The notes: generated by a model from the sequence alone, not told the origin. Positions 12,870-57,795 are shown, counted from the first letter of the whole stretch. The stretch is DNA of 63,201 nt, filler included, from Aduncisulcus paluster (GCA_024181965.1; 6 parts of 6 records of this genome joined end to end with filler, not necessarily neighbours in it), one strand, 5' to 3'. A program made the numbers and translations.

Positions 12870-12969
12870 NNNNNNNNNNNNNNNNNNNNNNNNNNNNNNN
12901 NNNNNNNNNNNNNTTAATTAATTAANNNNNNNNNNNNNNNNNNNNNNNNNNNNNNNNNNNNNNNNNNNN
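12870..12969. other. Synthetic scaffold linker (N44-TTAATTAATTAA-N44)
   Basis: Exactly 100 nt with a six-frame stop cassette; five identical copies in the window. Confidence 0.97.
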
Positions 12970-22546: not shown

Positions 22547-22646
22547 NNNNNNNNNNNNNNNNNNNNNNNNNNNNNNNNNNNNNNNNNNNNTTAATTAATT
22601 AANNNNNNNNNNNNNNNNNNNNNNNNNNNNNNNNNNNNNNNNNNNN
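22547..22646. other. Synthetic scaffold linker
   Basis: N44-TTAATTAATTAA-N44. Confidence 0.97.
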
Positions 22647-32079: not shown

Positions 32080-32179
32080 NNNNNNNNNNNNNNNNNNNNN
32101 NNNNNNNNNNNNNNNNNNNNNNNTTAATTAATTAANNNNNNNNNNNNNNNNNNNNNNNNNNNNNNNNNNNNNNNNNNNN
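32080..32179. other. Synthetic scaffold linker
   Basis: N44-TTAATTAATTAA-N44. Confidence 0.97.
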
Positions 32180-32221
32180 CATAAAAGAAATTTTGTTCAT
32201 CATTCATTCCAGACTATATCC

Positions 32222-33844
32222 ATGGAACAAGATGCTGATTCCATGCCATTGACTCCTCTTCTTCATCAAAATGATCAAAATAATTTTTCTAATTTTGGGA
32301 TTGATGCCACTCCCACCGAGATATCTGATATTGTTGACCATTCTCATGACATTAGTGATGTTTCTGAGATCATCGTTGATCGGCATGATGAAGAACCAAT
32401 GCATGACGAATGGGATGACAGTGTTTCAATTGATGGGACTTCAGTTTCCCATATTGATGGAGGTTTTTTACCAACAATGAGACGTTCTTCGACTGCGACC
32501 GATTTGACTCCTTTTGTTCGAATCGATGAAACAACTCATGATAAGGAGTCTCGGCATCACCGTTCCTCTTCATTTCCTTCCCCAAGATCCCAGATCTATG
32601 AAGAACAAATTCATATTTTACATAACCATCTTATGGAAAAAACGCCAAAACTCAAAAAATCTCTTTCTGGTTACTTTAACAGCCCATTTCAATTGAAAAG
32701 CAAGAAACCAAAGAAAGTTCATGTGAAATCTGTTCCCACTACCGACATATATGTTGCTCCAGAGAGGGTCAAAGTGGCAGAACGGGTATTTTCTCGTCTC
32801 CCATATATTGGTGTTCCTTGTTATGGCGAAGAAAGGAGGCGAATAATAATGAATCAAGCTACAAGTCCAATTGGGAAAGTTACTTATGATGAAAGTGATG
32901 AAAAATCCACTGTTGTTCGATCTCCATTTGACCAACAGGCTTATCTTGCTTGGGAAGAAATATTCAAGAATTTATTTGCAAAACCAAGTATATATGAGGA
33001 AAAAGAAGTTAAAGAATTTGAACGAACTCGAACCCATCTTTTGAGTAATCGTTTTCAATTACTTCGACTTCGTATGCTCTCGATTGCGTCTTTCCACGCC
33101 TCTCTATTATATTGGCAAATGTATTACATGACATCCAAGCCCTCTGCTCAGGATCAGAAGCTTACTGACGATGACAAAGCAAAAGCCAGGGATGCTTTGG
33201 CTCGGAATCAAGATCCTTCAACTATTCATACTTACGTTGACACATGTTGCAAAGAACGGTCGGATGATATCACAGATTCTCACTTGTCCATTGGTCTCAC
33301 TTTCCTGAAGATTGTCATGAAGAATCTCATCTGTTTGCTCGATATTGTTGAGGATGATAAACGGGAAGGCGATGGGATGACACGTGATTTGAAACGTGAT
33401 ATTGTTGAGGTTTTATATGAATGTTTATACCTTAGTTATCACATACCGTTTCGTGTTGGAATGAGAAAGTCAGCAGATATTATTGAAATTCGAGAAATGG
33501 TTTTTGGTTCTTTCAAAAATCACAAATCATTGAGAGAATCCTTGAAAGAAGTTGAATTTCGGAAGCATTTAGGTGTTTTAAAACAAATTCTTGAGAACAA
33601 AGAGGATAATTATGAAAGGATGAATAGTTTTTATTCTGAATTTTTACCTGATTTATATGCTCGGTTAAGTGTTACAAGGAAGTCTACGGTAACTTCGAGA
33701 GACGAGAGAATCACCGAACAAGACAAAAAACTGATAAGTATAGATATTGAGAGAGTTATTGATGGTCGTGATGACATTAAGAGCTTTCTTACTTGGATTG
33801 TTATCCTTGAAGAATTATTGGGTATTTCATTCGATCAAAGTTAA
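32222..33844 (+). CDS. Hypothetical protein (540 aa)
   Basis: Long ORF with an acidic disordered N-terminus and helical C-terminus. Confidence 0.8.
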   Translation: MEQDADSMPLTPLLHQNDQNNFSNFGIDATPTEISDIVDHSHDISDVSEIIVDRHDEEPMHDEWDDSVSIDGTSVSHIDGGFLPTMRRSSTATDLTPFVRIDETTHDKESRHHRSSSFPSPRSQIYEEQIHILHNHLMEKTPKLKKSLSGYFNSPFQLKSKKPKKVHVKSVPTTDIYVAPERVKVAERVFSRLPYIGVPCYGEERRRIIMNQATSPIGKVTYDESDEKSTVVRSPFDQQAYLAWEEIFKNLFAKPSIYEEKEVKEFERTRTHLLSNRFQLLRLRMLSIASFHASLLYWQMYYMTSKPSAQDQKLTDDDKAKARDALARNQDPSTIHTYVDTCCKERSDDITDSHLSIGLTFLKIVMKNLICLLDIVEDDKREGDGMTRDLKRDIVEVLYECLYLSYHIPFRVGMRKSADIIEIREMVFGSFKNHKSLRESLKEVEFRKHLGVLKQILENKEDNYERMNSFYSEFLPDLYARLSVTRKSTVTSRDERITEQDKKLISIDIERVIDGRDDIKSFLTWIVILEELLGISFDQS

Positions 33845-34275
33845 TATATGTCAATAAATCATTGACAATGATGATTATATTTTAATCTTATGAATCATAT
33901 ATGATTCAATCATAAGTTATGAGAATTATTCTCAGATAATAAATCAATCGTTATAGTATAACGTTATACTGAAAAATGGATCAGAATAGTATAGATCTTT
34001 CTAGCTCCTAGTTTAATATAATATAACTCCAAGAAATATCAGCCATCCCATTTACGGGGGTTATCAAATAGTCATATTTATTGTCTAAAACTTCTTTATC
34101 CTCATTTCGAACAGTGAGGAAAGACATTACATAGAAAACTGACACAAAAAAGATGAAAAGATAAGATGAATAGAAATCGAGCCATGAATTATTTTCTTAT
34201 AATTTACCTAACAACGATAAGAAATGGTCTCGAAGTTATAACTGATATAAAATAAAATCAATTAAACAACAACCA

Positions 34276-34375
<100 letters not shown>

Positions 34376-34481
34376 AAAATTGAAATAATATAGAAATCGA
34401 ATAACGTAGAAAAATAAATAATACTCGATAATAAGAAAAGATAGATTAAACAAATACAATTTAAGCTCCAATTACACAAAT

Positions 34482-37400
34482 TTACCAAATATCATCAGAA
34501 GTGCTCATTCGCACACTTCCGACTGTACTTGGTCGTCTGAATTGCATCGCCGATGATTTCAACAGAGCCATTCGAAGTTCGAATGCAGAACCTGAATTGG
34601 GTGATCCAGAAGGGTTACTACTATCCTTTCTTGGGGATATTTTCTTAACATCAATCGCTGACGAATCTGTATCATCAGTGTCAACATCAATCACAATGTC
34701 ATTTCCCATCTTGTGTGAATACATTTCATCATAAAACTTTGGAGATTTCTTCTTCTTCCCCAAGATTTGTCCAGAGCTTGAGGAACCATCTTCCACAACA
34801 TCTGAAAGCTCACCACCACTCAGAACAGATGCCATCCCACCACGTCTTGGAAGTTGTTTCTTCGATCCTTTCTCAATGGTCATGCTATAATGTCCAAGCC
34901 CGGACAAGACATCCCGACTATTTCTTCTTGGTTGTTTTTGCATAAATACAGGAGGAGATGAAATTCCTGAGCGTTTTATGCTACTAAACTCAGTATTGTC
35001 ACTGAATGCTGACACAAAGGGAAGTCCGTCGCCTCTCTTGGATCCCACACCTGTCTTTGCTCTAGGTAAGGTTCCAAACGTTCGACTTCTCTTCAATTTG
35101 TTCCCATCTCGAGAATTAGGAACCGCCGACACGGACACAAAGGATGATGCTTCCTGTAATTCACTCTTCGTGAAGACATCATTCAACGAGGGAGGTGCAA
35201 GACCGCAGCAACAACACCACAATTGCTTGCATGAAGCCTTGCATTCACATCCATAACCTTTACATTGGACACAGCAGCAAGATATCAGGAAGCAGAGCAG
35301 GAGCATGATAGAGAATGGAATCAAGGTCAGACAAAGACTTTCCGATACAACTGGAATGTAAGAAGAAAAGGAGATGGAGAAAGAAGAAGAATGTGAGATA
35401 GAAGAAACCCCAGATCCGGACGAATCTGTGAAGGAAATAGTCGCAGAAACAGACACGGGATCAAATTCAAAGGAAGAATCAATTCCTGAGACAGAACATG
35501 ATAGTTTCTCAAGAAAATCACTATTTATAGATTCAATTGAAGTTGCTGAGAAAGATATACCTTCCTGAACTGACATTCCATCGTAAGTATATTCTACTGT
35601 CGGTGCTAAGAAGAGCGAAATGGGAGAGGGAAGTGATGAAGGGATGTTAGAGGGGAGTGGAATATCTATATGATAAGAGACATCAAGGACTGAATTTGTA
35701 TTATTCGTGACGAACAAAGGGAAAGAAGAATCCCTATTCCTGATATCCACCTCCGTTGAATCGGAACTAACCGCGGAAAGCTCAATCGAATCCCCAGATG
35801 AGGTCAGAGCAAAGACGCTCTGAGGTCTGCTTAGAAGATCCTTCCGAATTGAACTAATCTCTTCAATTCCGATATAGGCATCTCCAGAGATACACACGGG
35901 AATGATTTCAAAAGACTCATCATCAAGAGAAGAGGAAAATGTACTAGATTTAGAAGAGGTCAAACACAATGCACCATCCAAATCAAGAATTAATACACTC
36001 ATGAATATTGAATTAGATGACGAATCAAAATAGGAGGACACGATGTATTCTTCCCCCACGTATGTGTTGGAAGTCCGAGGAGAAGCAGCAAGACTTTCGG
36101 TGACAGAAGAACCCATAGAGATGTCAAGATAATCATTCAATGACTCAAACGAAGCAGAGTTTGTCGATAAATTCCCAAATTGATCATACCACCGGGCTTT
36201 GAGTCGAATTTCATTCACAACAAGCGAATAAAGAGGAAACGAAGAGTAGAGGAGGAGAGAAGATGGGAGAAGTGAAGGAGACGAATCCGCCCCAAGTGGC
36301 ACAAGGAGAACTTGTGCCGATGATCCACTAGCTACGGTGAATACGGTAGATATCGTGAATGAAGTGAAGATTTCCTCATCCCGACACTCCAGAGGCGATG
36401 ACATANNNNNNNNNNNNNNNNNNNNCAAGACTTTCGGTGACAGAAGAACCCATAGAGATGTCAAGATAATCATTCAATGACACAAACGAAGCAGAGTTTG
36501 TCGATAAATTCCCAAATTGATCATACCACCGGGCTTTGAGTCGAATTTCATTCACAACAAGCGAATAAAGAGGAAACGAAGAGTAGAGGAGGAGAGAAGA
36601 TGGGAGAAGTGAAGGAGACGAATCCGCCCCAAGTGGCACAAGGAGAACTTGTGCCGATGATCCACTAGCTACGGTGAATACGGTAGATATCGTGAATGAA
36701 GTGAAGATTTCCTCATCCCGACACTCCAGAGGCGATGACATACACGTCGGATTGGGAGAAACAGTCGTAGTGAGAGAATATGTGCCACTAATTGTTGGGG
36801 AAAATAGAAAAGAGGAGGAAACTTCGGGGTCAGAGACAGAAGAAACATCGGGAATGGAATAGACGGTCGACATTGTTGTCACGACTCCAGAACAGAAAGC
36901 AGACGAAGGATAAGTGGATCCAGAATAATTGGCGAGAGCATTCGAATCACAAGAACTTATTGAAACAGAAGAAGAGAGGAGAGGAGCTTTTGTATCCCCA
37001 TTAATCACTGGATTGCTATACAAATCTCTTAGGGTAGTGGAAATATAAATATCTTCATCAACAGTCCGCGGAGAGGTCCCACTAAGATGGTTTATATATA
37101 TGATGGTCTTAGATTTGCTTGGAGCTGTTGGGAAAACAGTGATTGCAGCAGGAGACTCTGGGAAAGGATAATCTCCCATTCTTACGTGTAAATACATGTA
37201 TTCTCCAGAAGAAAGCTGCGAATACGTATATGTTCCTGTAGAAATGTCATAATCATCATATGAAAGAGCGTAAATCGTATTTAGAGTTGTACTTGAAAAA
37301 GACGATGTCTGAGTGAATTTAATTGTCGGTAAATTAGTCGATCTGATCTTTGTTACATTGTTATATTCATCGAAAACTTGAATTGAAAAGGAAACAGAAT

Positions 37401-37872
37401 CTCCAGCAGTTACAGAATCAGGAACTGAAAGAAAACTATTTGAATAATTAATATAACCCGAATTAGTTGAATATAGGCTCGAAAAAGTATCATTGCACGT
37501 ATCAGTTCCATCAAAGATCGAATATTTGATTGATACCGATCCAGGAACGGTACATCTTGCCGTAGCGACGATTCTTTCACAATTATTATTAAGAACAAAC
37601 GATGGATCTTCAACAACAATTTCAGAAGAATCTCCACAGACAAAAGTAATGGAGGCAGATGAAGGTGCTTCGGTAGCACAGGTTTCGATATTATTTTCAA
37701 CAATATAATAAGGAATAGAAATTGAAACTAGGGTAGAAGTGAGAATTTCACTTCCTGTATAGTCAGGGGCCAAACTATAAGTTCGAATCCGACTACAATC
37801 GATAGAAGAGGAAAAAATCGGGTAAAAAATCGAAAAGACAATTAGAAAAAATAAATTGAAATATGGAATCAT
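34482..37872 (-). CDS. Type I membrane protein with Ser/Thr-rich, filamin/Ig-like ectodomain; split by an assembly gap
   Basis: Signal peptide; repeated VTAGDSVSFSIQVFDEYNN / TLRDLYSNP / RWYDQFGN motifs; TM segment followed by a Cys cluster. De-duplication at gap 36406-36425 joins the two ORFs (SVTESL-AASP). Confidence 0.75.
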
Positions 37873-38132
37873 TTTTGAACAATAAAATATCGAGGTATAC
37901 TAGGAAATTGCCGAGAAAACACTAATATCATGAAATGATGCTTCTGGATTAAGTTGATCTGTCTTGAAAGTTCAAAATACAACCATGAAGAGTGCAAGCA
38001 ACTCACCGGATTTATTTTTATTGGAAAACAAATGATAAACGCTGTTAGTTTCCGATCAGTCACTGATTCAGGAAATCTAAGTAAAAGAGACAAAATACTG
38101 TCTAGTTTATAAAATAAATTGGATAATAATTA

Positions 38133-38705
38133 TTAATATTTTTTGCCTTTGCTCAATTTCCAGGGTTTAATGGCAGTTTTTTCAAATTTTTTGGAAGCTT
38201 TCTCCTTTCTATCCTCATCTCCCATCAATAGCCTTCTTTCCCTCGCTGTAATAGATGTAAAATCGAGAACTTTCAATGTTGGAAGCTTATATACAAGTTT
38301 CGCCCTTAATCCTGGTGATTTAGCGATTGGATTTGCATGAAGTGTAAGAGAATAAAGGTTAAGGGCTGTAAGCGATGTCAGAGCGAATCTTTTTTCAATC
38401 TTATTGTCGTGTAAATACAATGATTTGAGCCCAGGAAGCGATAATACTTCTTTGGGAATTGAAGAAAAAAGGTTAGATGAAATATCCAAAATCTTAACGT
38501 CTAATATGTTAACAACAATTACATCAAGAACCTCAAGCAATCCATCAAGTGAAATTAAATCATTTGAACAGAGTTTAATTGTCGTTGGACCTTGTTGTTC
38601 TCGGGTTATATCTTGTCGGGCAACTATCCCACTATGAGGGTGTAGTGTAAGTAATTCACGAATATTTTTAATTCCCATGTCTGAATAATCGACAATATTT
38701 GACAT
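38133..38705 (-). CDS. Leucine-rich repeat protein, LRRC51-like
   Basis: LDISSN, LKSLYLHDNKI, LTLHANPI repeats and LRR cap LPTLKVLDFTSITARER; 190 aa. Confidence 0.8.
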   Translation of the reverse strand: MSNIVDYSDMGIKNIRELLTLHPHSGIVARQDITREQQGPTTIKLCSNDLISLDGLLEVLDVIVVNILDVKILDISSNLFSSIPKEVLSLPGLKSLYLHDNKIEKRFALTSLTALNLYSLTLHANPIAKSPGLRAKLVYKLPTLKVLDFTSITARERRLLMGDEDRKEKASKKFEKTAIKPWKLSKGKKY

Positions 38706-38966
38706 TTAATCTCAATTTTCTACTATATTGTTGCCAAAATCTAACGTTCTACTTTCATTTTGCCGTCAATTGGCAATTGCAGGATTTAAAGTGGAATGAA
38801 GTGCGATAAATCATAAGTAAATATGATTACAAATATATTTTTACCAAACAATTTTATTGATAAACTTAAATTTCGGCAAAACTAAACATCCATATGAATG
38901 ACCAGGTAGGATATTGTTATTAAATATTTAATATCATAGGATGTGTTTATGATTATTAATAATTGA

Positions 38967-40889
38967 CTATAAATCAAGAATAGTGATGATATCTCCGTCG
39001 GTGACCGCAATTTGACTTTTGGAGATGATTTCAATTCTTGTTATTGGTTGAGCTAACTTGCAGATTTCATTTGATTCTGAATATAAATATCCAGATGATG
39101 TTCCAAATAATATTTTCCCTGAGCTATCCGTGGTACATGAAAAGACATCCTTTGAACAAATAATATTACATGATTTGAGTGAAGAACTATCATAAGAATA
39201 AATCCCTGTTCTTCCAAATGCATATATTATTCCCTTGTCAATGTACATTCCCCTTACAGGGTGTTCAAGCTTCCTCTTTGTCAAAATATTTCCAGAAGAG
39301 ATAGAATGCCGGATTAAGAGTCCTCCAACGCTCAAACTAATCAATATTCCATCTCGAATAAATATTCCACAAATCCTTGAATGATGTCCTCGCAATGTTC
39401 TGATGGGTTTTGCAGCTGAAATGGTGTCAAACACATATATAACACTTTCATCAGCTCGACCGATGGAACCCACAGTTGCAATAAAAGGAGACTCTTGGGC
39501 AATCTGCATTACATCAGTAAAATGCCCTCCAAGGCTTGCAAAATCAGCCCAAACACTATCATATAATTCACTTTCTTTTTCAATATCAGTAGATTTAATC
39601 TTCCCTTCAAATGCAGGAACAGAGGAGAGACGAAGAGGTTCAGATCTTGAATATACAGGAAGTTTCTCAACATTTGGAATTTTAATATCCATTCCAAGAT
39701 GTTTCAATGTTGCCACAAAAGATTGAGTTGGTTGCAAAACCCTGGCACAAGTTTCTTCTGTTCCGACAATGAGTTTCCAATCCTCACAAAAGGACAAACA
39801 TAATATTGGAAGACCATGTTTCATGATTCTCGACCTTTCACGACCCTTATACCACAATCTAACAGTATGGTCTTCTCCACAACTGGCAATGATCCCATCT
39901 TTGACACAGATATCATATATTGTGTCATGATGACCTGTAGAGATGCTTGGAAGTTCAACCACATCATTAGATTCATCGTTAAATAAATACACACAGACAA
40001 GACCATCAGTACGAACAGAAACTGCCCGATTATTTGTAATACCTATCGAGAGACACTCACTTCCTTGCTCGGGCGGACTTCCAAAACTCGACAAAAATTC
40101 TCCAACCTCGGAGAGGACACAAATTCTATCCCCAGCAACGAATAATTTTCTTGATTTATAACAAGGAAAAATACAATGAAGCCTCCCATTATGTAATAAA
40201 ATTGTTGAAATTGGCTTTAGAGAATTTCCATCTAGCTGTAAAATTCGAATTGAACCATCTAAACTAGCAGTAAAAATCTTCCCGTTTAGAGAAACGATTG
40301 CAGATATCCAATTTGAATGTAACATGTGGATACTTTGTGAAATAAGTCCCTTTTCCTCATTGAGAATCATTGCAGTCCCATTACTCATACCTACTATAAG
40401 ACTACTATCATTGATGTTATATAGACAAGTTGGAGAGTGTCGGGGAAAAGAATATGTAAATACCAATCTCGGGGAAAGAGAAGATACTTCTGTATCTAAA
40501 TTAAAGTATGAAACATCATTATACCCTGCAATTGATATCAATATTGAATTATTTGATGATTTTGAAACACACGAAGAAACAATAATTCCTTTTTTATACA
40601 AAGGTAGAGAGGTAAGAACTTTAAGGCTGAGATCAAGAACAAATAGATATCCTTTTGTTGTAAAACCAAAAATATGATCATCAACAACTTCAATACTTCT
40701 AATTAGTTCCCCAATACACGTGGCATTTGACACGCACCCCTCAATGAATGAATATTCAGCTATGTATGATCTATAAAAAAATATTACAGTATTATCAAGG
40801 ACTATGATACTATTTTTTGATGCTTGGGGTTTAACAATCCACCATCTCCTTCCTTCCATGATCAAGAAATGGAAGTATTGGATGACCAT
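38967..40889 (-). CDS. ELP2: WD40-repeat protein, divergent Elongator subunit ELP2-like
   Basis: Multiple WD40 repeats. TGH..IASCGEDHTVRLW..ERSRIMKHG..GTEE..ARV..SFVATL follows ELP2's conserved central block. The start may be 40859. Confidence 0.65.
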   Translation of the reverse strand: MVIQYFHFLIMEGRRWWIVKPQASKNSIIVLDNTVIFFYRSYIAEYSFIEGCVSNATCIGELIRSIEVVDDHIFGFTTKGYLFVLDLSLKVLTSLPLYKKGIIVSSCVSKSSNNSILISIAGYNDVSYFNLDTEVSSLSPRLVFTYSFPRHSPTCLYNINDSSLIVGMSNGTAMILNEEKGLISQSIHMLHSNWISAIVSLNGKIFTASLDGSIRILQLDGNSLKPISTILLHNGRLHCIFPCYKSRKLFVAGDRICVLSEVGEFLSSFGSPPEQGSECLSIGITNNRAVSVRTDGLVCVYLFNDESNDVVELPSISTGHHDTIYDICVKDGIIASCGEDHTVRLWYKGRERSRIMKHGLPILCLSFCEDWKLIVGTEETCARVLQPTQSFVATLKHLGMDIKIPNVEKLPVYSRSEPLRLSSVPAFEGKIKSTDIEKESELYDSVWADFASLGGHFTDVMQIAQESPFIATVGSIGRADESVIYVFDTISAAKPIRTLRGHHSRICGIFIRDGILISLSVGGLLIRHSISSGNILTKRKLEHPVRGMYIDKGIIYAFGRTGIYSYDSSSLKSCNIICSKDVFSCTTDSSGKILFGTSSGYLYSESNEICKLAQPITRIEIISKSQIAVTDGDIITILDL

Positions 40890-41070
40890 AAATGACTAAA
40901 AATAGAACATTAAAAATAGTATTTATAAAATAATTTAATTTATATAAAAATAGTATTTCTATAAAATAATTTAATAAAACAATTATTCGATATCTAAATT
41001 TAGATAATTTTTTTATCCTATTTTCTCAACACATCTCTACCAATGCAAAAATAGCGTAAATAGTTTTTCT

Positions 41071-41760
41071 TTATTTTTTCTTCTTCTTAACCAACATTTC
41101 TTCAACCCTTCGTTTCAACCATCTCACTTGAGAAGGTTTTAGTGCATCTAATTGCATACGAATTTTTCCATGGCTCTTTTCCAAAGGAATGTCCCGAAAT
41201 CTACAATATATACAAACTATCTTTGCCAGATTTTCTTTTGAGAGAAGAGAAATTTGATAAGCAAGAACTCCAAATTCAGCTTCGGACAAAGGCACAACTA
41301 GACTTGGATCAGCTTTTTTAAATTCTCCTTTTAATATCTTTTCGTGGTTTTCAACCGTTAAACCCAAATCTAATTGATAAAGCATATCGTCAAATTCATT
41401 TCTTACTTCTAAGGCAAACTTAAAGAAATCATGATCTTTTCCATTGAATCTCATGCAGTTTGTCCAAATCAAATCAGCTGCCTCAAGGAATTCATATAAT
41501 AATTTGTATTCACCCGATTTAAGATTCTTTTTCAGAGTGCTTAAATCCATAGGGTATTTAACAATTGTTAGATAATGGGGAAGCTTTAACTTAAGATAAT
41601 CAACTGGTTGAGAAAATACTGAGCCATGTTTTTTACGTTTTGTTGCTTCTATAACTTTTATAAGGCGAGCGCGGATAGGTTCAGACAATTCCAAATTGGC
41701 TATTTCATCAACTTGGATTGTAGGAGATATTTTAACAACTTTTTGGGAATCGGCACACAT
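41071..41760 (-). CDS. Bromodomain protein with C-terminal ET-like domain (BET/GTE-like)
   Basis: VFSQPVD..LPHY..IVKYPMDLSTL..LIWTNCMRFN; C-terminal PLSEAEF..LAYQISLL..LDAL pattern. Confidence 0.88.
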   Translation of the reverse strand: MCADSQKVVKISPTIQVDEIANLELSEPIRARLIKVIEATKRKKHGSVFSQPVDYLKLKLPHYLTIVKYPMDLSTLKKNLKSGEYKLLYEFLEAADLIWTNCMRFNGKDHDFFKFALEVRNEFDDMLYQLDLGLTVENHEKILKGEFKKADPSLVVPLSEAEFGVLAYQISLLSKENLAKIVCIYCRFRDIPLEKSHGKIRMQLDALKPSQVRWLKRRVEEMLVKKKKK

Positions 41761-42150
41761 TTTTATCGATAAAATACAAATTATCTACTTTTCAAATTGT
41801 GATTTGAGCCCAAACTCACAACTTGAAAAGTGGAGTGAACAAAATCTTACATCACCCCAGATTCCCACTGGAATTTAATTAGTTCAATCGTAAAATAATT
41901 GATATCATATTATTCCTCTGATTTCTTACTTCATTGATTTCTGGCTTTATGTGATCTGGCCATGATTCTTGTGTCTGTCAACGCATGTCCAGGTGAACTC
42001 CTTTCACAATTACAATACACTCAAAAATTAAAATATATTACTGGAAGATTTTTTGTGAAGAAGGAGGAAGGTTGATGTTTGTCATCATTTCATGAATTTT
42101 GTATTTTTTCGGTTGGTTCGTTGTCTTTTTCTTTTCGTTCATAGATAAAT

Positions 42151-43742
42151 ATGGTTGAATTTGAGTATGATTTAGCCATCATTGGGGGTATGTTGTAATA
42201 TTGTTGTTTTTTCCCTCCTTTTTTATGTTTTTTCTTCTAATATTCTTTGGTTTAGGTGGTTCTGGAGGTCTTGCTGCTGCCAGTAAAGCGGCTAGTTATG
42301 GCGCAAAAGTTCTTATTTTTGATTATGTTGATCCTACTCCTCGTGGAATTACATGGGGTGTTGGAGGAACATGTGTTAATGTTGGGTGTGTTCCCAAGAA
42401 ACTTTTTCATCGTGCAGCCGTCATGAAACATGATATGGAGGCTTCAGCTGAAGCTTATGGACTTGGTGTTCACGAGCCAACTCTCGATTGGCCTACTCTC
42501 CAAGGAAATGTAACCATGCATATTCGTTCTGTCAATTTTGGATACAGAATGAAATTCACCCGTGAGTCAATTACCTACAAAAATGAAAGGGCCAAATTCA
42601 TCGATGCTCACACATTGGAGGGAACTGATAGAGAGGGAAACAAGGCCACATACACTGCCGACAAAGTCCTTGTTGCTGTGGGTTGTAGACCAAAATATTC
42701 CGGTGTTCCTGGGGAAAAGGAATTATGTATCACTTCTGATGATCTTTTTAAAATCACTGAAGCTCCTGGAACGGTTCTTGTTGTTGGTGCTTCTTACGTT
42801 GCTCTTGAGTGTGCTGGTTTCCTCAAAGAACTTGGATTCCCTGTTACTGTAATGATTCGTTCCATTCCTCTCCGTGGATTTGACAGAGAATTTGCTGAAG
42901 CCGTTGTTACTGATCTTGAGAAACGTGGAATTCTCTTCATCCGTGGTATGACCCCCAAAAGTTATGAAAAGGTTACTTCTGACAAAGAAGAAGAGCCGAA
43001 AGAACAAGTTAAGGTTCATTTTGGTCCTTCTGCCTCCTCTGAGCCTGATGCTGAAGGAGTCTTCGATAATGTTCTTGTCGCCATTGGTCGTACTCCCCTT
43101 ACCTCTTCAATTGGTTTGGATAAGGTCGGAGTCACTGTTCATGAGAGATCCAAGAAGATTCTTACCGACGATTATGAGAAGACATGTGTTGACAATATTT
43201 ATGCCATTGGTGATTGTCGCCACGGTGTTCTTGAACTCACTCCTGTTGCCATTAGAGCTGGTCATGTTGTTTCTGAGAATCTCTTTTCCCGCATTCCAAT
43301 GGGAAAGGAGTTGTTGAAAGTTGATTACAAAGACATCAGTACGACAGTCTTCACTCCTCTCGAATATTCCTCCGTTGGTCTTTCTGAAGAGGCAGCCATT
43401 GCCAAGTATGGAGAAGATAAAGTTGAGGTCTTCAGAACTCAGTTCACTCCTCTAGAACACACTGTTCCTCATCTTGACGAGGTTTCCACCGTTAAGATCG
43501 TTGTTATGCGTACCGACGAATCTATTCCCTTTGAAAAATCCAAGATTGTTGGGTTGCATTATTCTGGGATTAACGCTGGTGAAATCATGCAAGGTTATGG
43601 TGTGAGTATTCGCAGAGGAATCACAAAGGACCAACTCGATGAAACCATTGGTATCCATCCCACAACTGCTGAGGGTCTCTTGGATGCTACAATGGCTGGA
43701 AGAGTGGGCGGTTCCTTCTCCAAGACTTCTTGCTGAGGTTAA
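42151..43742 (+). CDS. TXNRD: High-molecular-weight thioredoxin reductase, selenoprotein (C-terminal Ser-Cys-Sec-Gly); exons 42151-42187 and 42256-43742
   Basis: Splicing restores YDLAIIGGGSGG; CVNVGC redox centre, GASYVALEC, GIHPTTAE; ends TGC TGA GGT TAA. Confidence 0.92.
42188..42255 (+). other. Spliceosomal intron (68 nt, phase 1)
   Basis: GTATGT...TTCTAAT...TTAG inside the FAD-binding GxGxxG motif. Confidence 0.92.
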
Positions 43743-43773
43743 GGGGGCTAATTTAGAAATTAGCTCCCTAATC
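43737..43773 (+). promoter_or_regulatory. UGA-adjacent stem-loop, candidate Sec recoding element
   Basis: GGGGGCUAAUU-UAGA-AAUUAGCUCCC (11 bp, one G-U), extendable by GGUUA/UAAUC with one bulged A; starts right after the in-frame UGA. Confidence 0.55.
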
Positions 43774-43916
43774 CATCGTTGTAATTTTTTTTCATATCTT
43801 TATGTATGAATTATTTATTACTCTATTTAATTCAAGGATGTTTGAACCTTCCAATTTCAGATAATCTGTGAAAAATGAAAATAGAACCCTTGTGGATATT
43901 TTTATTTGAGATTTTC

Positions 43917-44175
43917 TGAGGTTTTTAGCACCGAACATTCATTCTACGATGTCCAATAAACTAGAACATGTTTTTATAACGCTGGACGAAGTCTTGTTCT
44001 AGTTTATTGCAGCCGTGTGCCATTTGGGACAGGAAACGAATAAATCGCATATACTCTTCCCCTCGAAAAGAAGATACTGTCCAAAACAACACTGCTGTTC
44101 ATAGATTGGCCTCAACATTATCGAGGATAATGGAAGGACGAAAAGTTCTATCTTCAAGATAAAACAAAAACCTCA
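43917..44175 (-). ncRNA. Unidentified multi-helix structured RNA candidate (~260 nt)
   Basis: 10-bp closing stem, a perfect 15-bp stem and at least five more helices; G-U pairs work on the minus strand; no ORF. Confidence 0.5.
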
Positions 44176-44258
44176 AATTTAAGGGAAAAGATTCTCCACG
44201 AATTTTTTTTTTTTAAAATTTTTTTTATTTTGCTCCAAATAAATGCCATTTATAATTT

Positions 44259-45419
44259 ATGGCCAGTGGTCAGTGGCCTGGCAGGCGTTTATACATGATA
44301 TTTGCCGCACACTATTCATTCATGACGAACAAAAATGACAGTATTCGTCCAGAATTCATTCATAACCCCCTTGTTTACCGGCTTAATATTAATAGCTCAC
44401 CTTCTATCTTGAAGAAACATGCAAGTGTCTCCCAGATGGAATTACTTGATCGACTTTTTTCTGCTCAACCAAATAATGCTCTTCGTATGATGTATACAAT
44501 TGCTATTATGGGATTCTTCATCCTTTTACACACTTGTTTGTCGCACCCTCAAATATTTCCCTATCTCGGGGTGTTTGCATGGATAATCGCTATGATTTCC
44601 AGATTATTTGATTATTGGTCTCGAAATGAAGAGTTATATCTCATTGATTTTTGTTATTTCGTGGATATACTATCTTTTTGTGCTGCTTTCTTCTTCTCTG
44701 ATGCAACCCTCAGCGAAATTTGTGATAATTCCAGTTTTAGATCCATTCCATATGCTTTAGAGTTAATTAAAGTTATTTTTGCATGTGCAGCAGGACCTGT
44801 CACAGTTGCTATTGTATTCTGGAAGAATGCGCTTGTATTTCACTCTCCTCAACGTATTGTAAGTATTTTGATTCATTGTCTTCCATTTTTAATGGTCGGT
44901 CGGATGTCTATTAATGTTGGAAATATTGAAAGGGCTGAGGAAGTTTCACATATTTCTAATATTGTTTTGAATTATAAAATCATGATTCCTGGCGTTGCAA
45001 TTGTGTATATATGTTGGCAATTGCTTTACATGTTCTTAATTTTCGGTATTTTTCACTTCTATCGCAAGAAGCACCCGTACGTTCATTGTTCACTCGGCGA
45101 TCTATGTTCTAAGTTCGCTGATCCAAAAAGCTCAATATGGCTCCTTCGTGCTATTGCACGTCATAATCCCGTCGGTGCGTTTTCTTGTCTCGCTATGCTC
45201 ATTGTTCAGGGAGGCTATACTATCTTGACTTCCCTTCTTACCCCAATACTCTGGGAATTCCCTTCCTTGTTTATTGCAGTTGAAATATTTGCTGCTGCTT
45301 ATTTTTTGTGGAATGGTGCTAAGGATTATTATCAAGATTCAACCGGTTTTTTGGTTCAGGAAGCTAGAGAATATCTTGTCTCCAATGAGGTGTCTCAATC
45401 AAAAGAAATTGAACAATAA
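44259..45419 (+). CDS. GPC1: Glycerophosphocholine acyltransferase Gpc1 (DUF2838) family membrane protein
   Basis: YLIDFCYFV, GP..AIVFWKNALVFHS..SILIH..P, WQLLY and WNGA motifs; multiple TM segments. Confidence 0.85.
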   Translation: MASGQWPGRRLYMIFAAHYSFMTNKNDSIRPEFIHNPLVYRLNINSSPSILKKHASVSQMELLDRLFSAQPNNALRMMYTIAIMGFFILLHTCLSHPQIFPYLGVFAWIIAMISRLFDYWSRNEELYLIDFCYFVDILSFCAAFFFSDATLSEICDNSSFRSIPYALELIKVIFACAAGPVTVAIVFWKNALVFHSPQRIVSILIHCLPFLMVGRMSINVGNIERAEEVSHISNIVLNYKIMIPGVAIVYICWQLLYMFLIFGIFHFYRKKHPYVHCSLGDLCSKFADPKSSIWLLRAIARHNPVGAFSCLAMLIVQGGYTILTSLLTPILWEFPSLFIAVEIFAAAYFLWNGAKDYYQDSTGFLVQEAREYLVSNEVSQSKEIEQ

Positions 45420-45749
45420 TTGGTCAAAATTGATACAACGATAATGATGAATTCATTCTACGAATAAATAAACCTTTATCTCAACGTGAACTTCATCAAT
45501 ACAGAAACGATTTTCTCATGATCCTTCGAGCATATTATCACAAAAATGAATACATTTTTGATTAAGAAATAATCTTTACAATAAATTTAATCAAAACAAA
45601 TACACAAATTAGTCTGAGATCTGGAGATCAGAAAGGATTTCCTGTTTTACTTTTTTGGACCATTTCCGAAAATTTATTTTAAATATCTATTTGCATTTCA
45701 TTGATTATATTGGGTTTATTTTACTTTTCTTGAAGTGTATCCGAATTTC

Positions 45750-47696
45750 ATGGTCGCAATAGCCTCATATATAATTGGTTCCCCTGGAGCTGGGACCACG
45801 AGTTTTTTTAATAAGGTCATGTCAGATAAGACAATGAAAAATGTTGTAAAAATTGATGAATCATCTTTTTCTGCTGATGTAAAAGGAAAAGAGTTTTCAA
45901 TGGTTGATATGTCAAATTCTCACCAACCATTATTATCTGCTGCGTCAGTTGATCGTTGGCTTTCAACTGTTGATTCTCAAATTCCAATTATTATTATATT
46001 ATGCTATGATATTACGAAATTGGCTTCTTGGGAAAGAATAGTACCCATTCTCTCTTTTTTATCGGAAAATCAGAAGAAATCGAATGAATACTTTCGAGAC
46101 CCATCGATACATCTTTCTCATCCGCCAATATGTCGTATTTATGTTGTAGGAACTCATTTTGACTTACAGAAACAACGATCTGTGTCAACCGATCTTGTCA
46201 AGGATGAATGTGTTGAAAAAGATGTTTCATTTATGGAAATATCAAGTGTTTCAGGGCAAAATATTGAGTTATTTGTGACTTTGTTCATGATTAAGACCAA
46301 AGGAATTGTCCGTGGCCTTGAGAAGTTGGCACAAAGCAGCCAAAAACAGAAAGATGATGATGAAAAAAGGAAAGAGGAAGAAAAAAGAGAAGAGGAGAAG
46401 AGGAGAGAAGAAGAGAAGAGGAGAGAAGAAGAGAAGAGGAGAGAAGATGAAAGGAGAAGAGAAGAGGAGAAGAGAAGAGAAGATGAAAGGAGAAGAGAAG
46501 AGGAGAAGAGAAGAGAAGATGAAAGGAGAAGAGAAGAGGAGAAGAGAAGAGAAGATGAAAGGAGAGAAGATGAAAGAAGAAGAGAAGAATATGAAGAGAG
46601 AAGAAAAGAGGAGGAGGAGGAGGGAAGATTTAGATTTGATGAAAGAAGAAGAGAGGAAGAAGAAAGGAGGAGAGAAGATGAAAGGAGAAGAGAGGAAGAA
46701 GAAAGAAGGAGAGAAGATGAAAGAAGAAGAGAAGAAGAAGAAAGAAAAAGGAAAGAGAAAAGAAGGAAAGAGGAGAAACGGAGAGCAGCAAAACAAAAAG
46801 AACGAATTGCTGAATTGTCTGATGCCGATGAACGTCTAAAACGTCTAGAAAAGAGATTATCACAAAGAAAGTCTTCCCCAAAACAACCCTTCATTGATTC
46901 TTCCCTCTTTGGAGAAGCCCGACCACCCATGAAAACCTCGCCTTCTCTCTTCGATGTTGACCCTCAAATCGGCACATCAGGCGACCCTACCCTGGATAGA
47001 GAAGCCATTGGGCAATATGATCCATCAATCAATCTTTTAGGCGAAGGAAGTGAATTGCATCATGGCTCGCTTTCTTCCCTCACAACTCATGTGGGTGGAA
47101 CCTCTGCAATGAAGCGTCCCATTTATTTGTCGCCGCAACCAAAGCCTACCGCCGCCCCCACTCACCGTATTCCTCCTCCCCTCTCTTCTGCTTCCTTCTC
47201 TCCTCTTCCCCCGTTAACCATCTCAATCGATCTCCCAAACGGATATACGCATGAGATTGTTGTCCATTACACTGACAATTCATATGATCATGCGATTGAG
47301 GTGTGTGATCAATGTGGCCTAAATCGTGATGAATATGCTGAAGTTCTGGCTCTTCACATCCAAGAACGGTTGTCAGAGCATGTTTCTTTGGAGATGGATC
47401 GAAGGAAGAAGTTAAAGGAGAGACACATAAAGCAATCAACTGCTTTCGCACCCGGAGTCGCTTGTAGGAAGCTATCAAAGAGTGGAAGGCGAAGAGAAAA
47501 AAAAGTGGTTCTGAGTGTTCCCGTCGATGTTGGGGAAAAGAAGTTTTATTTATTTGTCAGAGAAGGAGATGACCCTAACGATGTGGTAGATGGGTTTTGT
47601 AGGGTGTTTAAGCTGAAAGAGGACCAACGAATTCAGTTAATAACCTATGTTCAAAGAGAACTGACTAAAATGAAAATTCGAGGGAAAATATCATGA
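45750..47696 (+). CDS. Degenerate Rab-like small GTPase domain + ER/K single alpha-helix + two C-terminal ~60-aa repeats
   Basis: GSPGAGTT, ILCYDIT..SW, VVGTHFDL..R.VS, FMEISS..GQNIE.F; (EEKRR)n tract. ATG at 45750. Confidence 0.8.
   Translation: MVAIASYIIGSPGAGTTSFFNKVMSDKTMKNVVKIDESSFSADVKGKEFSMVDMSNSHQPLLSAASVDRWLSTVDSQIPIIIILCYDITKLASWERIVPILSFLSENQKKSNEYFRDPSIHLSHPPICRIYVVGTHFDLQKQRSVSTDLVKDECVEKDVSFMEISSVSGQNIELFVTLFMIKTKGIVRGLEKLAQSSQKQKDDDEKRKEEEKREEEKRREEEKRREEEKRREDERRREEEKRREDERRREEEKRREDERRREEEKRREDERREDERRREEYEERRKEEEEEGRFRFDERRREEEERRREDERRREEEERRREDERRREEEERKRKEKRRKEEKRRAAKQKERIAELSDADERLKRLEKRLSQRKSSPKQPFIDSSLFGEARPPMKTSPSLFDVDPQIGTSGDPTLDREAIGQYDPSINLLGEGSELHHGSLSSLTTHVGGTSAMKRPIYLSPQPKPTAAPTHRIPPPLSSASFSPLPPLTISIDLPNGYTHEIVVHYTDNSYDHAIEVCDQCGLNRDEYAEVLALHIQERLSEHVSLEMDRRKKLKERHIKQSTAFAPGVACRKLSKSGRRREKKVVLSVPVDVGEKKFYLFVREGDDPNDVVDGFCRVFKLKEDQRIQLITYVQRELTKMKIRGKIS
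46360..46790 (+). repeat. Purine-rich coding tandem repeat (18/36-nt units encoding EEEKRR/EDERRR)
   Basis: Almost pure A/G tract; explains the overlapping spurious ORFs. Confidence 0.85.
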
Positions 47697-48093
47697 TATC
47701 ATATCCTCGAATTAGTATTAGCCCCGAATTTCTACTGAAATTAATATATAAAATAGTAGTTCTCAAATATAATATATTATTGTAATAAATATCGCACTTT
47801 TCATTCTTAATTATTACTGATAATTATCAGCATTTTGGAATCTACCAAGATGTCATTTTTGTTCGTGCATTAGATCCACAAATAATAGCGATTAGTTATC
47901 AGTGATATGATATCACTGATATCATTTGCTTCAAATTCACCGAAAATCTATTCTCAGAAATTTTCTGAGAAAATGAGCAATGATAAGCATCCTTGTACAA
48001 TGATTAAGCTGAACTCCATTCGGAGCAAGCGTCGGCAGGAAATTTTACTTACATTTCGTTTAAACTTTAAACTTTAAAGTTTAACCATCACTT

Positions 48094-51000
48094 TTAGAAA
48101 TCGAAAGATGAAGAAGATTCATCTGCGTCTGTCAGACCGCCACGCTCTCTGAAATAATCCGATGAAACGTTCAATACTTTGAATCCTCTCCCATAAATCT
48201 TCTTTGAGTTGCTCATCGATTCCTCTGCACAAGAAGGATGATGAGCATGTGGAAGATTTGGAAGAACAGAACAATCTGTGACAACTTTCTTCTTCTTTTT
48301 TAGCTCCCTTTGCTGCTGAAGCGATACTCTAGTTTGTTCAGCTTGAGCCGCAGAATATTCCCCAATGCCTCCAGTGGCATAAGAATCGAAGGAATCCTGG
48401 GAACTATAAGAATCAGCAAAGGCCGTTGTTGATTCTTCAGTCGATTCGACCTCTTCCTCTTCTTCACCATCCTTTCTCTTTGGATTGCAAACAAGATCTC
48501 CACAAGCATGACATTTCGTACGTTTATCCATTTCAATCTTTCCACGCTTCAAGTAACCCAACTTGAGTTCCGTATCAATCTCTCGACCTCGAAGAAGAGA
48601 AGCAACGGTTTGAAGCCTTCGCAATTCTTTCACTTTCTCGCCAAGAATAAAAGACAAAAACGGTGAGAACACACCAAGATCAACACTGTCATATACTTCT
48701 GGAAGTTCAGATAGAATCTTTGAGGAACGGGTCACAAGAGCAGAACCCCAAAGCTCATGAGGATTAAGCACAAGGGCCAAGAGTGAAGATAAAGTGGCTG
48801 TCGATGCGGATAGAGGTACATTAACCTGAAGAGTGTGAGAAGATTGAATATGTTTTTGTCTGGAATCAAGACGATCAGAATTGCTAATCACACTGGTTTT
48901 GATCCCTTCTCTTCTTCGCCCCATCACAACAAATAAGGCCCTAAAGGTTTCAGCAATATCATCATCGAAGGCCGCACGGAATATTTCACGATGATTGAAC
49001 TCTTTCTCATCCTCAATTTCATTTTGCCACTCTTCAAGATCATCTTGAATTGTTGTCACCTTGCTTTCCCGCTTAATTTCACCCTCCTTAAGCTCAGATC
49101 CACTTTCACTCTCACTGTGTCCTTGCTCAGAGTATGAATTTGAATGATATCCTTCACTGTCTCCATCATCACCAACCGATGATCGCCTGTGATGGTGAGA
49201 CGATTGCTTTGCTTCGTCACGGGAAGCTGATGTATCCTGCGCTTTCACAAGTGATGATCCGTATTCCTTTGCATTGGATAGAGCTCTTCTTCTCTCTTCT
49301 TTCTTTTTCTTCATCCAAATCTTCTTCTGTTTTCTTACCTCATTGTCAGCTCTCCTCCTTGATGTACTCACACAATACTCGACACACAAATCAACATAAT
49401 CGGTATCATCCCCATCAGTGGACATAGGTTTGATTTGGGTTTGGGATCCTTGTCGCCCGTGTCCCCATCCACCTTCACAGATACACTCAATGGCCTCTTC
49501 ATCCATGTGACACACTGACAACGAGGATATAAGAGCTAAGCATTTCTCTGAAGGCTTTGGATATAAAGTATTCATTATCTGACCAGGGACAAAAGAAGAT
49601 CGTTGTCCTTTCTTGGCTTGAGCTCTGCGACGTTCTTCATAGGAATGTTGCGTATGGGACAACAAATGAGGTAATATGGAACGAACATCCTTGGCATCAA
49701 GCTTGAGGATGAGTTCACTCAATAGTTCATCGATTACACCACTCACAGACCATATATACATCACTCTATCAGCAGGTGTGAGCATGGAAATTGAATGTGG
49801 AAGGAATGGGAGGTAAGGGACATACGGAGATAGATAGGTTGACAAGTTAAGAAGTAAGTTGGGGGCAAATATTTTAGTTGGGGAAGATCCTAGTATGCCT
49901 GGATATTTCAATTTGTGCAATTGAGCTGAAACATAGTTGATACCAGATACATTAAGAAGATTCAAGGCATCGCGAGGAATAGCAAATCCTCTCCATTCAC
50001 ACAGCGATAAGGGATTACAAGAATCCACAATTTCAGAAAGGTCAGAAAAAATTGAAATAATGCGAGATATGGATGTATTTTGAATACCTTCTTCATTAAT
50101 CACTTTATCTTGGAGTGTTGGCTGACCACTCAGTGAGAGTCCAGACTCAGAAGATTCCTTGCCTTTTTCTTTATGGGCCCACCAGAATCCTCTTGATTCG
50201 CCCAATTCGACAGCGCTTCGATCAACTTTTTCGCCAACACTTATCCAAACCTCCAGAAGAGCATGGGCAAGGGCAAGTGCGTGGGTTGAATCATTCCGAA
50301 TTCCATTTGACACCTTACTTTTGTCGCGCAATTTGAGTTTCAGACGTTCTTTTTCAGCTTGATGATACCACTCGCGAATAATAATAGGAGTTGTAAAACC
50401 CAGAATATGTGGCAAATCAGCTGGAGAGAGCATTTGTTCACCTCCATTCCCGGTATTCAAACGGCCATCCAAGCCCTTCTCCTTCTTCACTGTTAGTGAT
50501 GTAGTCAAGGAAGACAACAGGGAGAGAGCATGTTCTGGGGAGTATAGGGAGATAACAGGAAGGCATATGGAAAGAAGGGAATCAAGAATGGGAGGTAATG
50601 AAGCAATGGGTCGAGAGGCTCCGGATCTGGAGGGTACTCTTGACGAACCATGCTCAATGCCCTCATCTTGATCAAGGAATCTATCCCCACGCCGATGCCT
50701 GTCACTTGGAGTTGCACGACCATCACCTGGAGCATCTTCTTCTTCGGTAGTTCCTTGCGATCCTCTGACACTTCCACACACCTTTTTACATACCCACAGC
50801 ATTCGTTTCCACCCCGTGCGGGGAATATGGGAGAGACACATCACACCCTCTCGCCATCTACGGAGAGAGAGAAGGATATTCGAGAGAGCTGGATATGATC
50901 TCATAGATGATAAAGTATTCAGAAAATTATGTTGTGCAAATGGAGCGGGTGGGGTGAATGGAGAATCAGATGTCTCTCCTGCATGATCATGACCCCATTC

Positions 51001-51221
51001 TCCATCTCCCTCACTATCACTCAATTCATTTGAGACATCTTTCGAAGCACTGTCATTCTCATCGCCCCATCCACTGACCCACACACCTTCACAGAGTTCA
51101 GAAACATCCATCCCCGCAAACAGCATCGAGAGGAATAAAGCCTGTGATAAGATGGTGTGAAAACGGGCAGACAAAAGTGAATTTGGCGGGTGGGAACTGA
51201 GAGGAGGTTCAGAGGTGCAAC
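48094..51221 (-). CDS. Large protein with C-terminal Zn-finger, Vps39/Vps3/Vps8/Vps41-like tethering subunit; 5'-truncated
   Basis: KRGKIEMDKRTKCHACGDLV...VLP..HAHHPSC after a helical LSELPE..DL..FL segment; frame open to the scaffold edge. Confidence 0.55.
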
Positions 51222-51321
51222 NNNNNNNNNNNNNNNNNNNNNNNNNNNNNNNNNNNNNNNNNNNNTTAATTAATTAANNNNNNNNNNNNNNNNNNNNNNN
51301 NNNNNNNNNNNNNNNNNNNNN
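51222..51321. other. Synthetic scaffold linker
   Basis: N44-TTAATTAATTAA-N44. Confidence 0.97.
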
Positions 51322-54619: not shown

Positions 54620-55098
54620 TTTTACATCCTGTTACATCATCAATAATTATATAAATTTATTTTTCCTCGAACTTATGCTATTCTCTCAGTTTTTGTTAAA
54701 ATAAATCATTATCACAACTTTTTGGACATCTTTTGTAAATAAATAACAATTTAATCTATCATCTATCAGTTTGGATATATATTTCTCCCTCTGTTCGATT
54801 TTCTTCCGTGAGTGCATTATTAGGATGATTGGGGAAGATATATTCATTGTTTATTAAATAACTAGAGTAATAATTTTAAAATATTATTTCAAATCTTCAT
54901 TTGTTATTTTCTTTGAAGTTCTTCCAGCACTCCATTTGTATTCTCTTTGAAAGACACAGTTAATATGATCCATATTCAAAATAGGTGTTACCTGAATACT
55001 AAATCATATTTTTTCGAAAATAATATCATGCTCCACTATTTTTGTCACTTCAAAATTGACAAGCTTGGTGTTTTTGTTTCATTTTTGTAGAAACAACG

Positions 55099-57695: not shown

Positions 57696-57795
57696 NNNNN
57701 NNNNNNNNNNNNNNNNNNNNNNNNNNNNNNNNNNNNNNNTTAATTAATTAANNNNNNNNNNNNNNNNNNNNNNNNNNNNNNNNNNNNNNNNNNNN
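57696..57795. other. Synthetic scaffold linker
   Basis: N44-TTAATTAATTAA-N44. Confidence 0.97.

Follow-up and report, generated by a model that had tools for sequence, protein, structure and literature searches.

A stable RNA hairpin that starts directly after the penultimate, in-frame UGA codon in the gene for thioredoxin reductase of Aduncisulcus paluster most likely aids an ordinary SECIS further downstream and is not its substitute. The reading that we prefer, and to which we give a probability of about 0.6, has two elements: a kink-turn-type SECIS with a GUGA core, 134 nt after the UGA, and an accessory hairpin at the UGA itself that is similar to the SREs and to the stem-loop of SELENOS. 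The gene, the hairpin, and the SECIS-form candidate were analyzed in the window, i.e., the whole 63,201-nt stretch of DNA, and comparisons were made with thioredoxin reductase loci from metagenome contigs.

The gene and its penultimate UGA

Judged by its sequence, the gene at 42151-43742 (+ strand) is a selenoprotein thioredoxin reductase of the large, animal type, ending in Cys-UGA-Gly-UAA (TGC TGA GGT TAA at the 3' end of the coding sequence; Table 1). Its host is a free-living fornicate metamonad, whose draft genome is in print (PMC9933649). The gene product is identical (100%) to a 505-aa database protein, P0001, which is entered as 'Thioredoxin reductase SEP1 [Aduncisulcus paluster]'; the second-best database protein is only 49% identical, and the databases contain no close relative. 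Both the fold and the dimerization domain were recovered with Pfam (Pyr_redox_2, PF07992, 6e-49, and Pyr_redox_dim, PF02852, 1e-22), and a search of the PDB gave rat TrxR1 (1h6v, 2e-134) in a full-length alignment that runs through the C-terminal Cys-Sec-Gly. The translation contains both this C-terminal motif and the N-terminal redox centre CVNVGC. In a quick tree with the control-locus proteins, for which the careful search was incomplete, the Aduncisulcus protein forms a long branch without supported kin.

The 31 long ORFs of the window end in TAA (17), TAG (5), or TGA (9). With 9 of 31 ending in TGA, UGA is also an ordinary stop codon here, and Sec decoding therefore needs a discriminating signal. 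None of the other ORFs with an in-frame TGA in the window is selenoprotein-like, the tRNA search of the window returned no tRNA, and no component of the Sec machinery was found among the 10 ORFs sent to Pfam. Our literature search returned no paper on the selenoproteins of Aduncisulcus, nor one on the selenoproteome of the Metamonada.

Table 1. Coordinates of the thioredoxin reductase gene and of the RNA structures in its 3' region
Feature	Position	Strand	Basis
Exon 1 (Met1 to first base of codon 13)	42151-42187	+	P0001 mapped on the DNA; ATG at 42151
Intron, 68 nt, GT...AG	42188-42255	+	P0001 mapped on the DNA; GT start at 42188
Exon 2, through Cys-TGA(Sec)-Gly-TAA	42256-43742	+	Pfam; alignment with PDB 1h6v
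Sec codon UGA, penultimate	43734-43736	+	aligned with Sec of mammalian TrxR1; TGA there in 20 of 20 control loci
Gly codon GGT	43737-43739	+	sequence
Stop codon TAA	43740-43742	+	sequence
UGA-proximal hairpin	43737-43773	+	folding, shuffles, census; z -4.0 to -4.6
SECIS-form candidate, GUGA-N13-AA...GA	43853-43923	+	descriptor, folding, shuffles; without Rfam match
Second hairpin, 15-bp perfect stem, 26-nt loop	43954-44009	+	-20.7 kcal/mol, z -2.69

The UGA-proximal hairpin and its recurrence

The core of the UGA-proximal hairpin is a GC-clamped stem of 12 bp (43742-43753 with 43758-43769), which includes one G-U pair, closes a 4-nt loop (43754-43757), and has its first pair at +6 after the UGA. 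An outer helix of 5 bp (43737-43741 with 43769-43773) spans the Gly and UAA codons and represents an alternative register with A43742 bulged, which brings the total to about 16 bp. Folding of 43731-43780 yielded -20.2 kcal/mol (z -3.98), a stability reached by none of 200 dinucleotide shuffles, and the 48 nt after the UGA gave a z of -4.56. When 43734-43775 was folded on either strand, the + strand reached -19.3 (z -4.20) vs -15.1 for the - strand; the structure thus forms better on the mRNA strand.

To place these values within the genome, hairpins with stems of at least 11 bp and loops of 3-12 nt were listed for both strands of the window. The energy minimum of this census is the UGA-proximal hairpin itself (-16.1), followed by two hairpins at -14.4 and -14.0, and it lies 6 nt from the sole Sec codon of the window. 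A 26-mer taken from it, searched for with up to 3 mismatches allowed, has no second copy in the window, i.e., it is not a repeat. We also folded the 48 nt after the stop codons of the 31 other ORFs of at least 200 aa, of which 3 run into N: none of the 28 evaluable stretches reached z <= -3, with a minimum of -1.98. As the most stable structure of the census and without a like after 28 other stops, the hairpin is real, stands out in this genome, and is probably functional. The sequence-only reading of this DNA had described a hairpin of about 16 bp directly after the in-frame UGA, favoring the mRNA strand, sequestering the UAA stop, and lacking a counterpart after the few other stop codons inspected, a description that the folding, the shuffles, and the survey of stops uphold on each point.

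A functionless origin of the hairpin, as a palindrome that arose by chance or as a small insertion of an inverted repeat, is extremely unlikely. Such an origin would fit with the abundance of short inverted repeats in AT-rich genomes (28 rows of the census are on the + strand, 25 on the - strand) and with the fact that the finding was selected after the event, but it would leave to coincidence that the most stable hairpin of the census stands beside the window's only Sec codon, is not repeated, and folds better on the sense strand, and that other thioredoxin reductase genes have counterparts in the same place.

These counterparts were sought in 20 control loci from metagenome contigs that encode thioredoxin reductases 36-47% identical to the query (tblastn); all 20 end in Cys-TGA-(Gly/Ser/Ala)-stop. 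In each locus the 48 nt after the UGA were folded and scored against dinucleotide shuffles at a threshold of z <= -3, and 48-nt windows inside coding regions served as the control. A significant fold was present in 7 of the 20 loci (L001, L002, L005, L008, L011, L017, and L028) vs 1 of 126 coding windows. The element is not universal, since no significant hairpin was found within 48 nt in the other 13 control loci. Nevertheless, among thioredoxin reductase mRNAs a hairpin recurs just behind the penultimate Sec codon and is not peculiar to this organism; with these frequencies in loci and coding windows, it is not special to the Aduncisulcus lineage either.

In the window and the five strongest loci, pairing begins at +5 to +7 after the UGA, which places the first pair on the final base of the stop codon or immediately past it; the stems have 12-16 bp and the loops 3-7 nt. 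A stem that starts 5-7 nt past the recoded codon has the usual spacing of recoding stimulators. L010 and L013 form structures of longer range with the same starting point. The types of pairs diverge past the first 3-4 pairs; apart from a short G+C clamp, the stems have different sequences. Across the loci, a structure is thus found at a shared position while its sequence varies, as in elements of the SRE or SELENOS type, in a comparison of loci at 36-47% identity to the query. The loci with a hairpin are dispersed over the quick tree and have sisters that stay below the 48-nt threshold.

The 3' region of the gene is rich in structure as a whole (z -5.29 for 43725-44060). The second hairpin (Table 1) holds in its 5' arm the first AATAAA after the stop codon (43955-43960) and may be related to 3'-end formation. 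Considered as a SECIS, it was rejected on sequence and fold, because its flanks cannot form the GA/AG core. The distance from the stop codon to the first AATAAA ranges from 8 to 539 nt in 16 ORFs, a spread too wide for a usable signal. From three sequencing runs, none recorded as RNA, contigs of unrecorded kind cover 43757-43940 (X2) and 43833-44035 (X1) and cannot show the transcript end. In X1 the summed depth over the gene greatly exceeds that over its neighbor downstream; these being contigs of unrecorded kind, no conclusion rests on depth.

This setting bears on the possibility that the hairpin, as a conserved RNA structure, serves another job, such as mRNA stability, 3'-end formation, efficient termination at the UAA, or the binding of a regulatory protein, and has no direct effect on recoding. 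The structure is real and recurrent and is tied to recoding by its position alone; it covers the true stop codon, and it is followed, within a structure-rich region, by the second strong hairpin. However, six independent sequences have the start of the stem at +5 to +7 after the UGA, which is the usual spacing of recoding stimulators, and a general 3'-end signal is contradicted by the lack of post-stop hairpins in the 28 evaluable other genes. We therefore regard another job as an unlikely explanation of the hairpin.

A SECIS-form candidate downstream

Between the UGA-proximal hairpin and the next ORF lies a SECIS-form candidate (Table 1), at a distance from the UGA that falls within the range of the control loci (54-184 nt). 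It consists of a helix I of 9 bp (43853-43861 with 43915-43923), a GUGA core (43868-43871) that faces a GA on the 3' strand (43908-43909), as an RUGA/GA core does, a helix II of 11 bp (43873-43883 with 43897-43907), which is within the range of about 9-13 bp of kink-turn SECIS elements, and an unpaired AA (43885-43886) 13 nt past the core. The candidate is enclosed in a longer hairpin of 105 nt (43836-43940) with a z of -3.29 on the + strand vs -1.69 on the - strand. It is imperfect in two respects: A43872 is bulged between the core and helix II, and RNAfold favors pairing its 3' GA within a 5-bp helix (43863-43867 with 43909-43913).

The descriptor used for these searches combined an RUGA core with a GA on the 3' strand and with an unpaired AA that follows the core at a distance of 10-16 nt; its further terms were a helix II spanning most of that distance and the duplex energy of helix I. 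Its limits were fixed after the controls and the candidate had been inspected; two earlier, stricter versions missed obvious SECIS elements in the controls. In its loose form, the descriptor detected a canonical-form element in 14 of the 20 controls, with a GUGA core in 6 of these 14, and the spacing in the SECIS of control thioredoxin reductases was N12-N15. The same loose form matched 75 cores on both strands of the window, among which the candidate ranks 11th by energy. A compact form, in which the inner part could not exceed 52 nt, following the controls, recovers only 8 of the 20 controls; it gave 14 matches in 126 kb, the best of which is the candidate (-18.0). When the 478-nt 3' region was shuffled 1000 times with its dinucleotides preserved, 23 of the shuffles had any compact match and none had an equally good one.

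Searches with Rfam at 43600-44500 and 43830-43945 returned no SECIS family at E <= 10. This negative carries no weight, as Rfam at the gathering score gives no SECIS match in any of the 20 control loci either; in the window it gave weak C/D-box snoRNA matches far below the gathering score. Of two covariance models, R1, built on one control SECIS, matched itself only, and R2, which is weak, ranks the candidate 7th of 15 (14.0 bits, E = 3). R2 was derived from 13 sequences, aligned with MAFFT and annotated with 6 pairs; it recovers 12 of these 13 and misses every control SECIS element outside the training set. On the 13-sequence alignment RNAalifold detected no pairs, and MAFFT misaligned the elements when applied to subsets.

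With form 2 of the eukaryotic kink-turn SECIS, the candidate shares the RUGA opposite GA, the length of helix II, the unpaired AA, and a helix I below the internal loop, and it lies 134 nt past the UGA, as SECIS elements do in the control thioredoxin reductase loci. It differs from the eukaryotic element in its GUGA core in place of AUGA (a variant that the controls also have), in the one bulged A, and in the missing Rfam match. We consider it likely that 43853-43923 is the working SECIS. The statement of the sequence-only reading that no canonical SECIS lies downstream is not confirmed, given this candidate; the N11-12 spacing on which it relied was too narrow for an N13 element and for the controls.

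The hairpin and a distal SECIS also occur together in the control loci. Among the seven hairpin-bearing loci, five have a canonical-form SECIS by descriptor (L005, L008, and L028 with the loose form, L001 with a version of the descriptor that has no 3'-flank requirement, and L011 with both), and L002 has one by eye. Since hairpin-bearing controls also have a distal SECIS and the window has a candidate of its own, replacement of the SECIS by the hairpin is not supported.

A probable accessory stem-loop in Sec insertion

Bacterial SECIS elements have in common with the Aduncisulcus hairpin the location directly 3' of the UGA and a loop about 17 nt downstream, and the sequence-only reading had raised the possibility that the hairpin itself is the Sec insertion signal, with the Sec elongation factor or some other factor as its binding partner, in which case the kink-turn candidate would be a chance match. 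Besides the geometry, such a signal would be in line with the lack of a SECIS by Rfam, with the imperfections of the candidate (the bulged A, the paired GA, and its ranks of 11th of 75 with the loose descriptor and 7th of 15 with R2), and with the diplomonad relative Spironucleus, for which the account in PMC2874811 reports tRNA-Sec, SelB, a bacterial-like SelD, and SelW genes that contain UGA, along with no canonical SECIS detected with ERPIN and a distinction between Sec and stop described there as unknown. However, bacterial SECIS elements act as the sole signal, whereas the window has a distal SECIS-form candidate, unmatched by 1000 shuffles, and similar hairpins are found in 7 of 20 thioredoxin reductase loci, 5 of these 7 with a canonical-form SECIS by descriptor. 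The Rfam negative is weightless, with 0 of 20 controls detected. Moreover, the host is a eukaryote, and for its relatives Spironucleus and Monocercomonoides a eukaryotic/archaeal-type pathway has been reported, including PSTK, SepSecS, and an elongation factor specific for Sec (PMC3916229, PMC6759080).

A bacterial-like role of the hairpin is thus very unlikely. From the sequence-only proposal of a non-canonical signal, the part that fits is an SRE-like accessory hairpin, in agreement with its geometry, strand asymmetry, and recurrence, and the part that is not supported is a bacterial-type sole signal, given the candidate SECIS and the controls that have both elements. The further suggestion that this lineage decodes Sec through a UGA-proximal element finds no support either, with a SECIS-form candidate 134 nt downstream and the hairpin and SECIS side by side in mRNAs of other eukaryotes. 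We regard it as highly improbable that in Aduncisulcus, and perhaps in Fornicata generally, a factor-bound hairpin adjacent to the UGA is required for Sec insertion and the kink-turn candidate dispensable; if true, this would account for the canonical SECIS not having been found in Spironucleus (PMC2874811).

A new decoding mechanism is not shown by these data, and the hairpin is best classed with the known UGA-proximal accessory stem-loops. Stem-loops of this kind near the UGA are described for mammalian SELENON and SELENOT (SREs), and the stems, loops, and spacers of SREs modulate Sec insertion according to a review (PMC8704476). The hairpin has in common with these SREs that it is a stable stem-loop a few nucleotides 3' of the UGA that encodes Sec, accessory to a distal SECIS, and that its structure is conserved more than its sequence. 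They differ in that the SELENON SRE lies inside the coding sequence, whereas the Aduncisulcus hairpin lies almost wholly in the 3'UTR, as a single codon follows Sec. Closer in this respect is SELENOS, in which a conserved proximal stem-loop is reported to stimulate the insertion of Sec, and to do so only if it lies close to the UGA (Bubenik et al. 2013, PMC3628699): there as here, Sec is penultimate, a stem-loop occupies the proximal 3'UTR near the UGA, and a distal SECIS follows (a candidate in Aduncisulcus). SELENOS nevertheless belongs to another gene family, the Aduncisulcus stem includes the stop codon itself, and the likeness is one of position and form.

According to the proposed mechanism, the distal GUGA-core element would recruit the eukaryotic Sec machinery. 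With the UGA in the A site, the stem would stand at the ribosome's mRNA entrance, where it may slow the ribosome or disfavor the action of release factors, by analogy with the SELENON SRE and the SELENOS stem-loop. This delay would give the SECIS-bound machinery time for the delivery of Sec-tRNA. Such aid would matter for the enzyme, as the alternative product is a truncated thioredoxin reductase without its active-site Sec.

In the literature on SREs and thioredoxin reductase that our search covered, no such hairpin was found described; the lists and supplements of the original SRE papers, reportedly those of Howard et al. from 2005 and 2007, were outside its scope and may include thioredoxin reductase. 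We see about even odds that a thioredoxin-reductase-specific recoding hairpin after the UGA is widespread among eukaryotes and has been overlooked so far. For metamonads, the GUGA-type candidate provides a concrete search pattern. If the hairpin works as proposed, it would be an ancient device, widely distributed, that modulates how Sec is inserted at C-terminal UGA codons.

Composition of the window and its other genes

The window was assembled artificially from contigs and is no single natural stretch, with each join consisting of 44 N, a 12-base linker carrying stop codons in all frames and another 44 N. Gaps of 20 N also occur within the contigs themselves (nine such runs). Open reading frames (ORFs) across the window were assigned with Pfam at a cut-off of 1e-5, which identified four neighboring genes in the window; at the same cut-off, no Pfam match was obtained for four more long ORFs of 500–1059 amino acids or for a TGA-readthrough ORF of 199 amino acids.

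Positions of hairpins, genes and contig joins in the window
Feature	Position	Strand	Basis or remark
WD40 protein, neighboring gene	38967-40895	-	Pfam
Bromodomain protein, neighboring gene	41071-41784	-	Pfam
DUF2838 membrane protein, neighboring gene	44334-45419	+	Pfam
6-Phosphogluconate dehydrogenase, neighboring gene	55060-56616	+	Pfam
Hairpin with the thioredoxin reductase start codon in its 5' arm	42151-42179		11 bp, 7-nt loop
Second strong hairpin, thioredoxin reductase 3' region	43954-44009		212 nt past the stop codon
Contig with the thioredoxin reductase gene	32180-51221		19,042 bases
Contig joins	12870-12969, 22547-22646, 32080-32179, 51222-51321, 57696-57795		filler between contigs

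Further hairpins and possible repeats

The second strong hairpin has a perfect 15-bp stem and a loop of 26 nt (-20.7 kcal/mol, z -2.69 by folding). As its arms bear AATAAA on the plus strand and the identical hexamer on the minus strand, it looks like a possible bidirectional 3'-end signal; a role as a SECIS was ruled out, as the SECIS core cannot form. At the other end of the gene, the start-codon hairpin (-9.6 kcal/mol in the window hairpin census) is reminiscent, by analogy, of the initiation stem-loop that has been described for SELENOP. Further downstream, positions 44027-44120 and 44129-44197 were matched by sequencing-run contigs, with five differences in the latter segment. Since these contigs run into unrelated sequence on both sides, the organism appears to carry further copies of both segments; an Rfam search over the two returned no meaningful match.

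SECIS detection in control loci and possible earlier omission of the enzyme

The controls were 20 thioredoxin reductase loci of eukaryotes on metagenome contigs (L001-L028), and the Rfam SECIS models at their gathering score detected not a single one. By the simple descriptor, a search pattern for the canonical form, a SECIS was found in 14 of these same loci, and GUGA cores were common among the matches (6/14). The large, glutathione-reductase-family selenoenzyme encoded at 42151-43742 may have been overlooked in earlier published analysis, perhaps because of its UGA.
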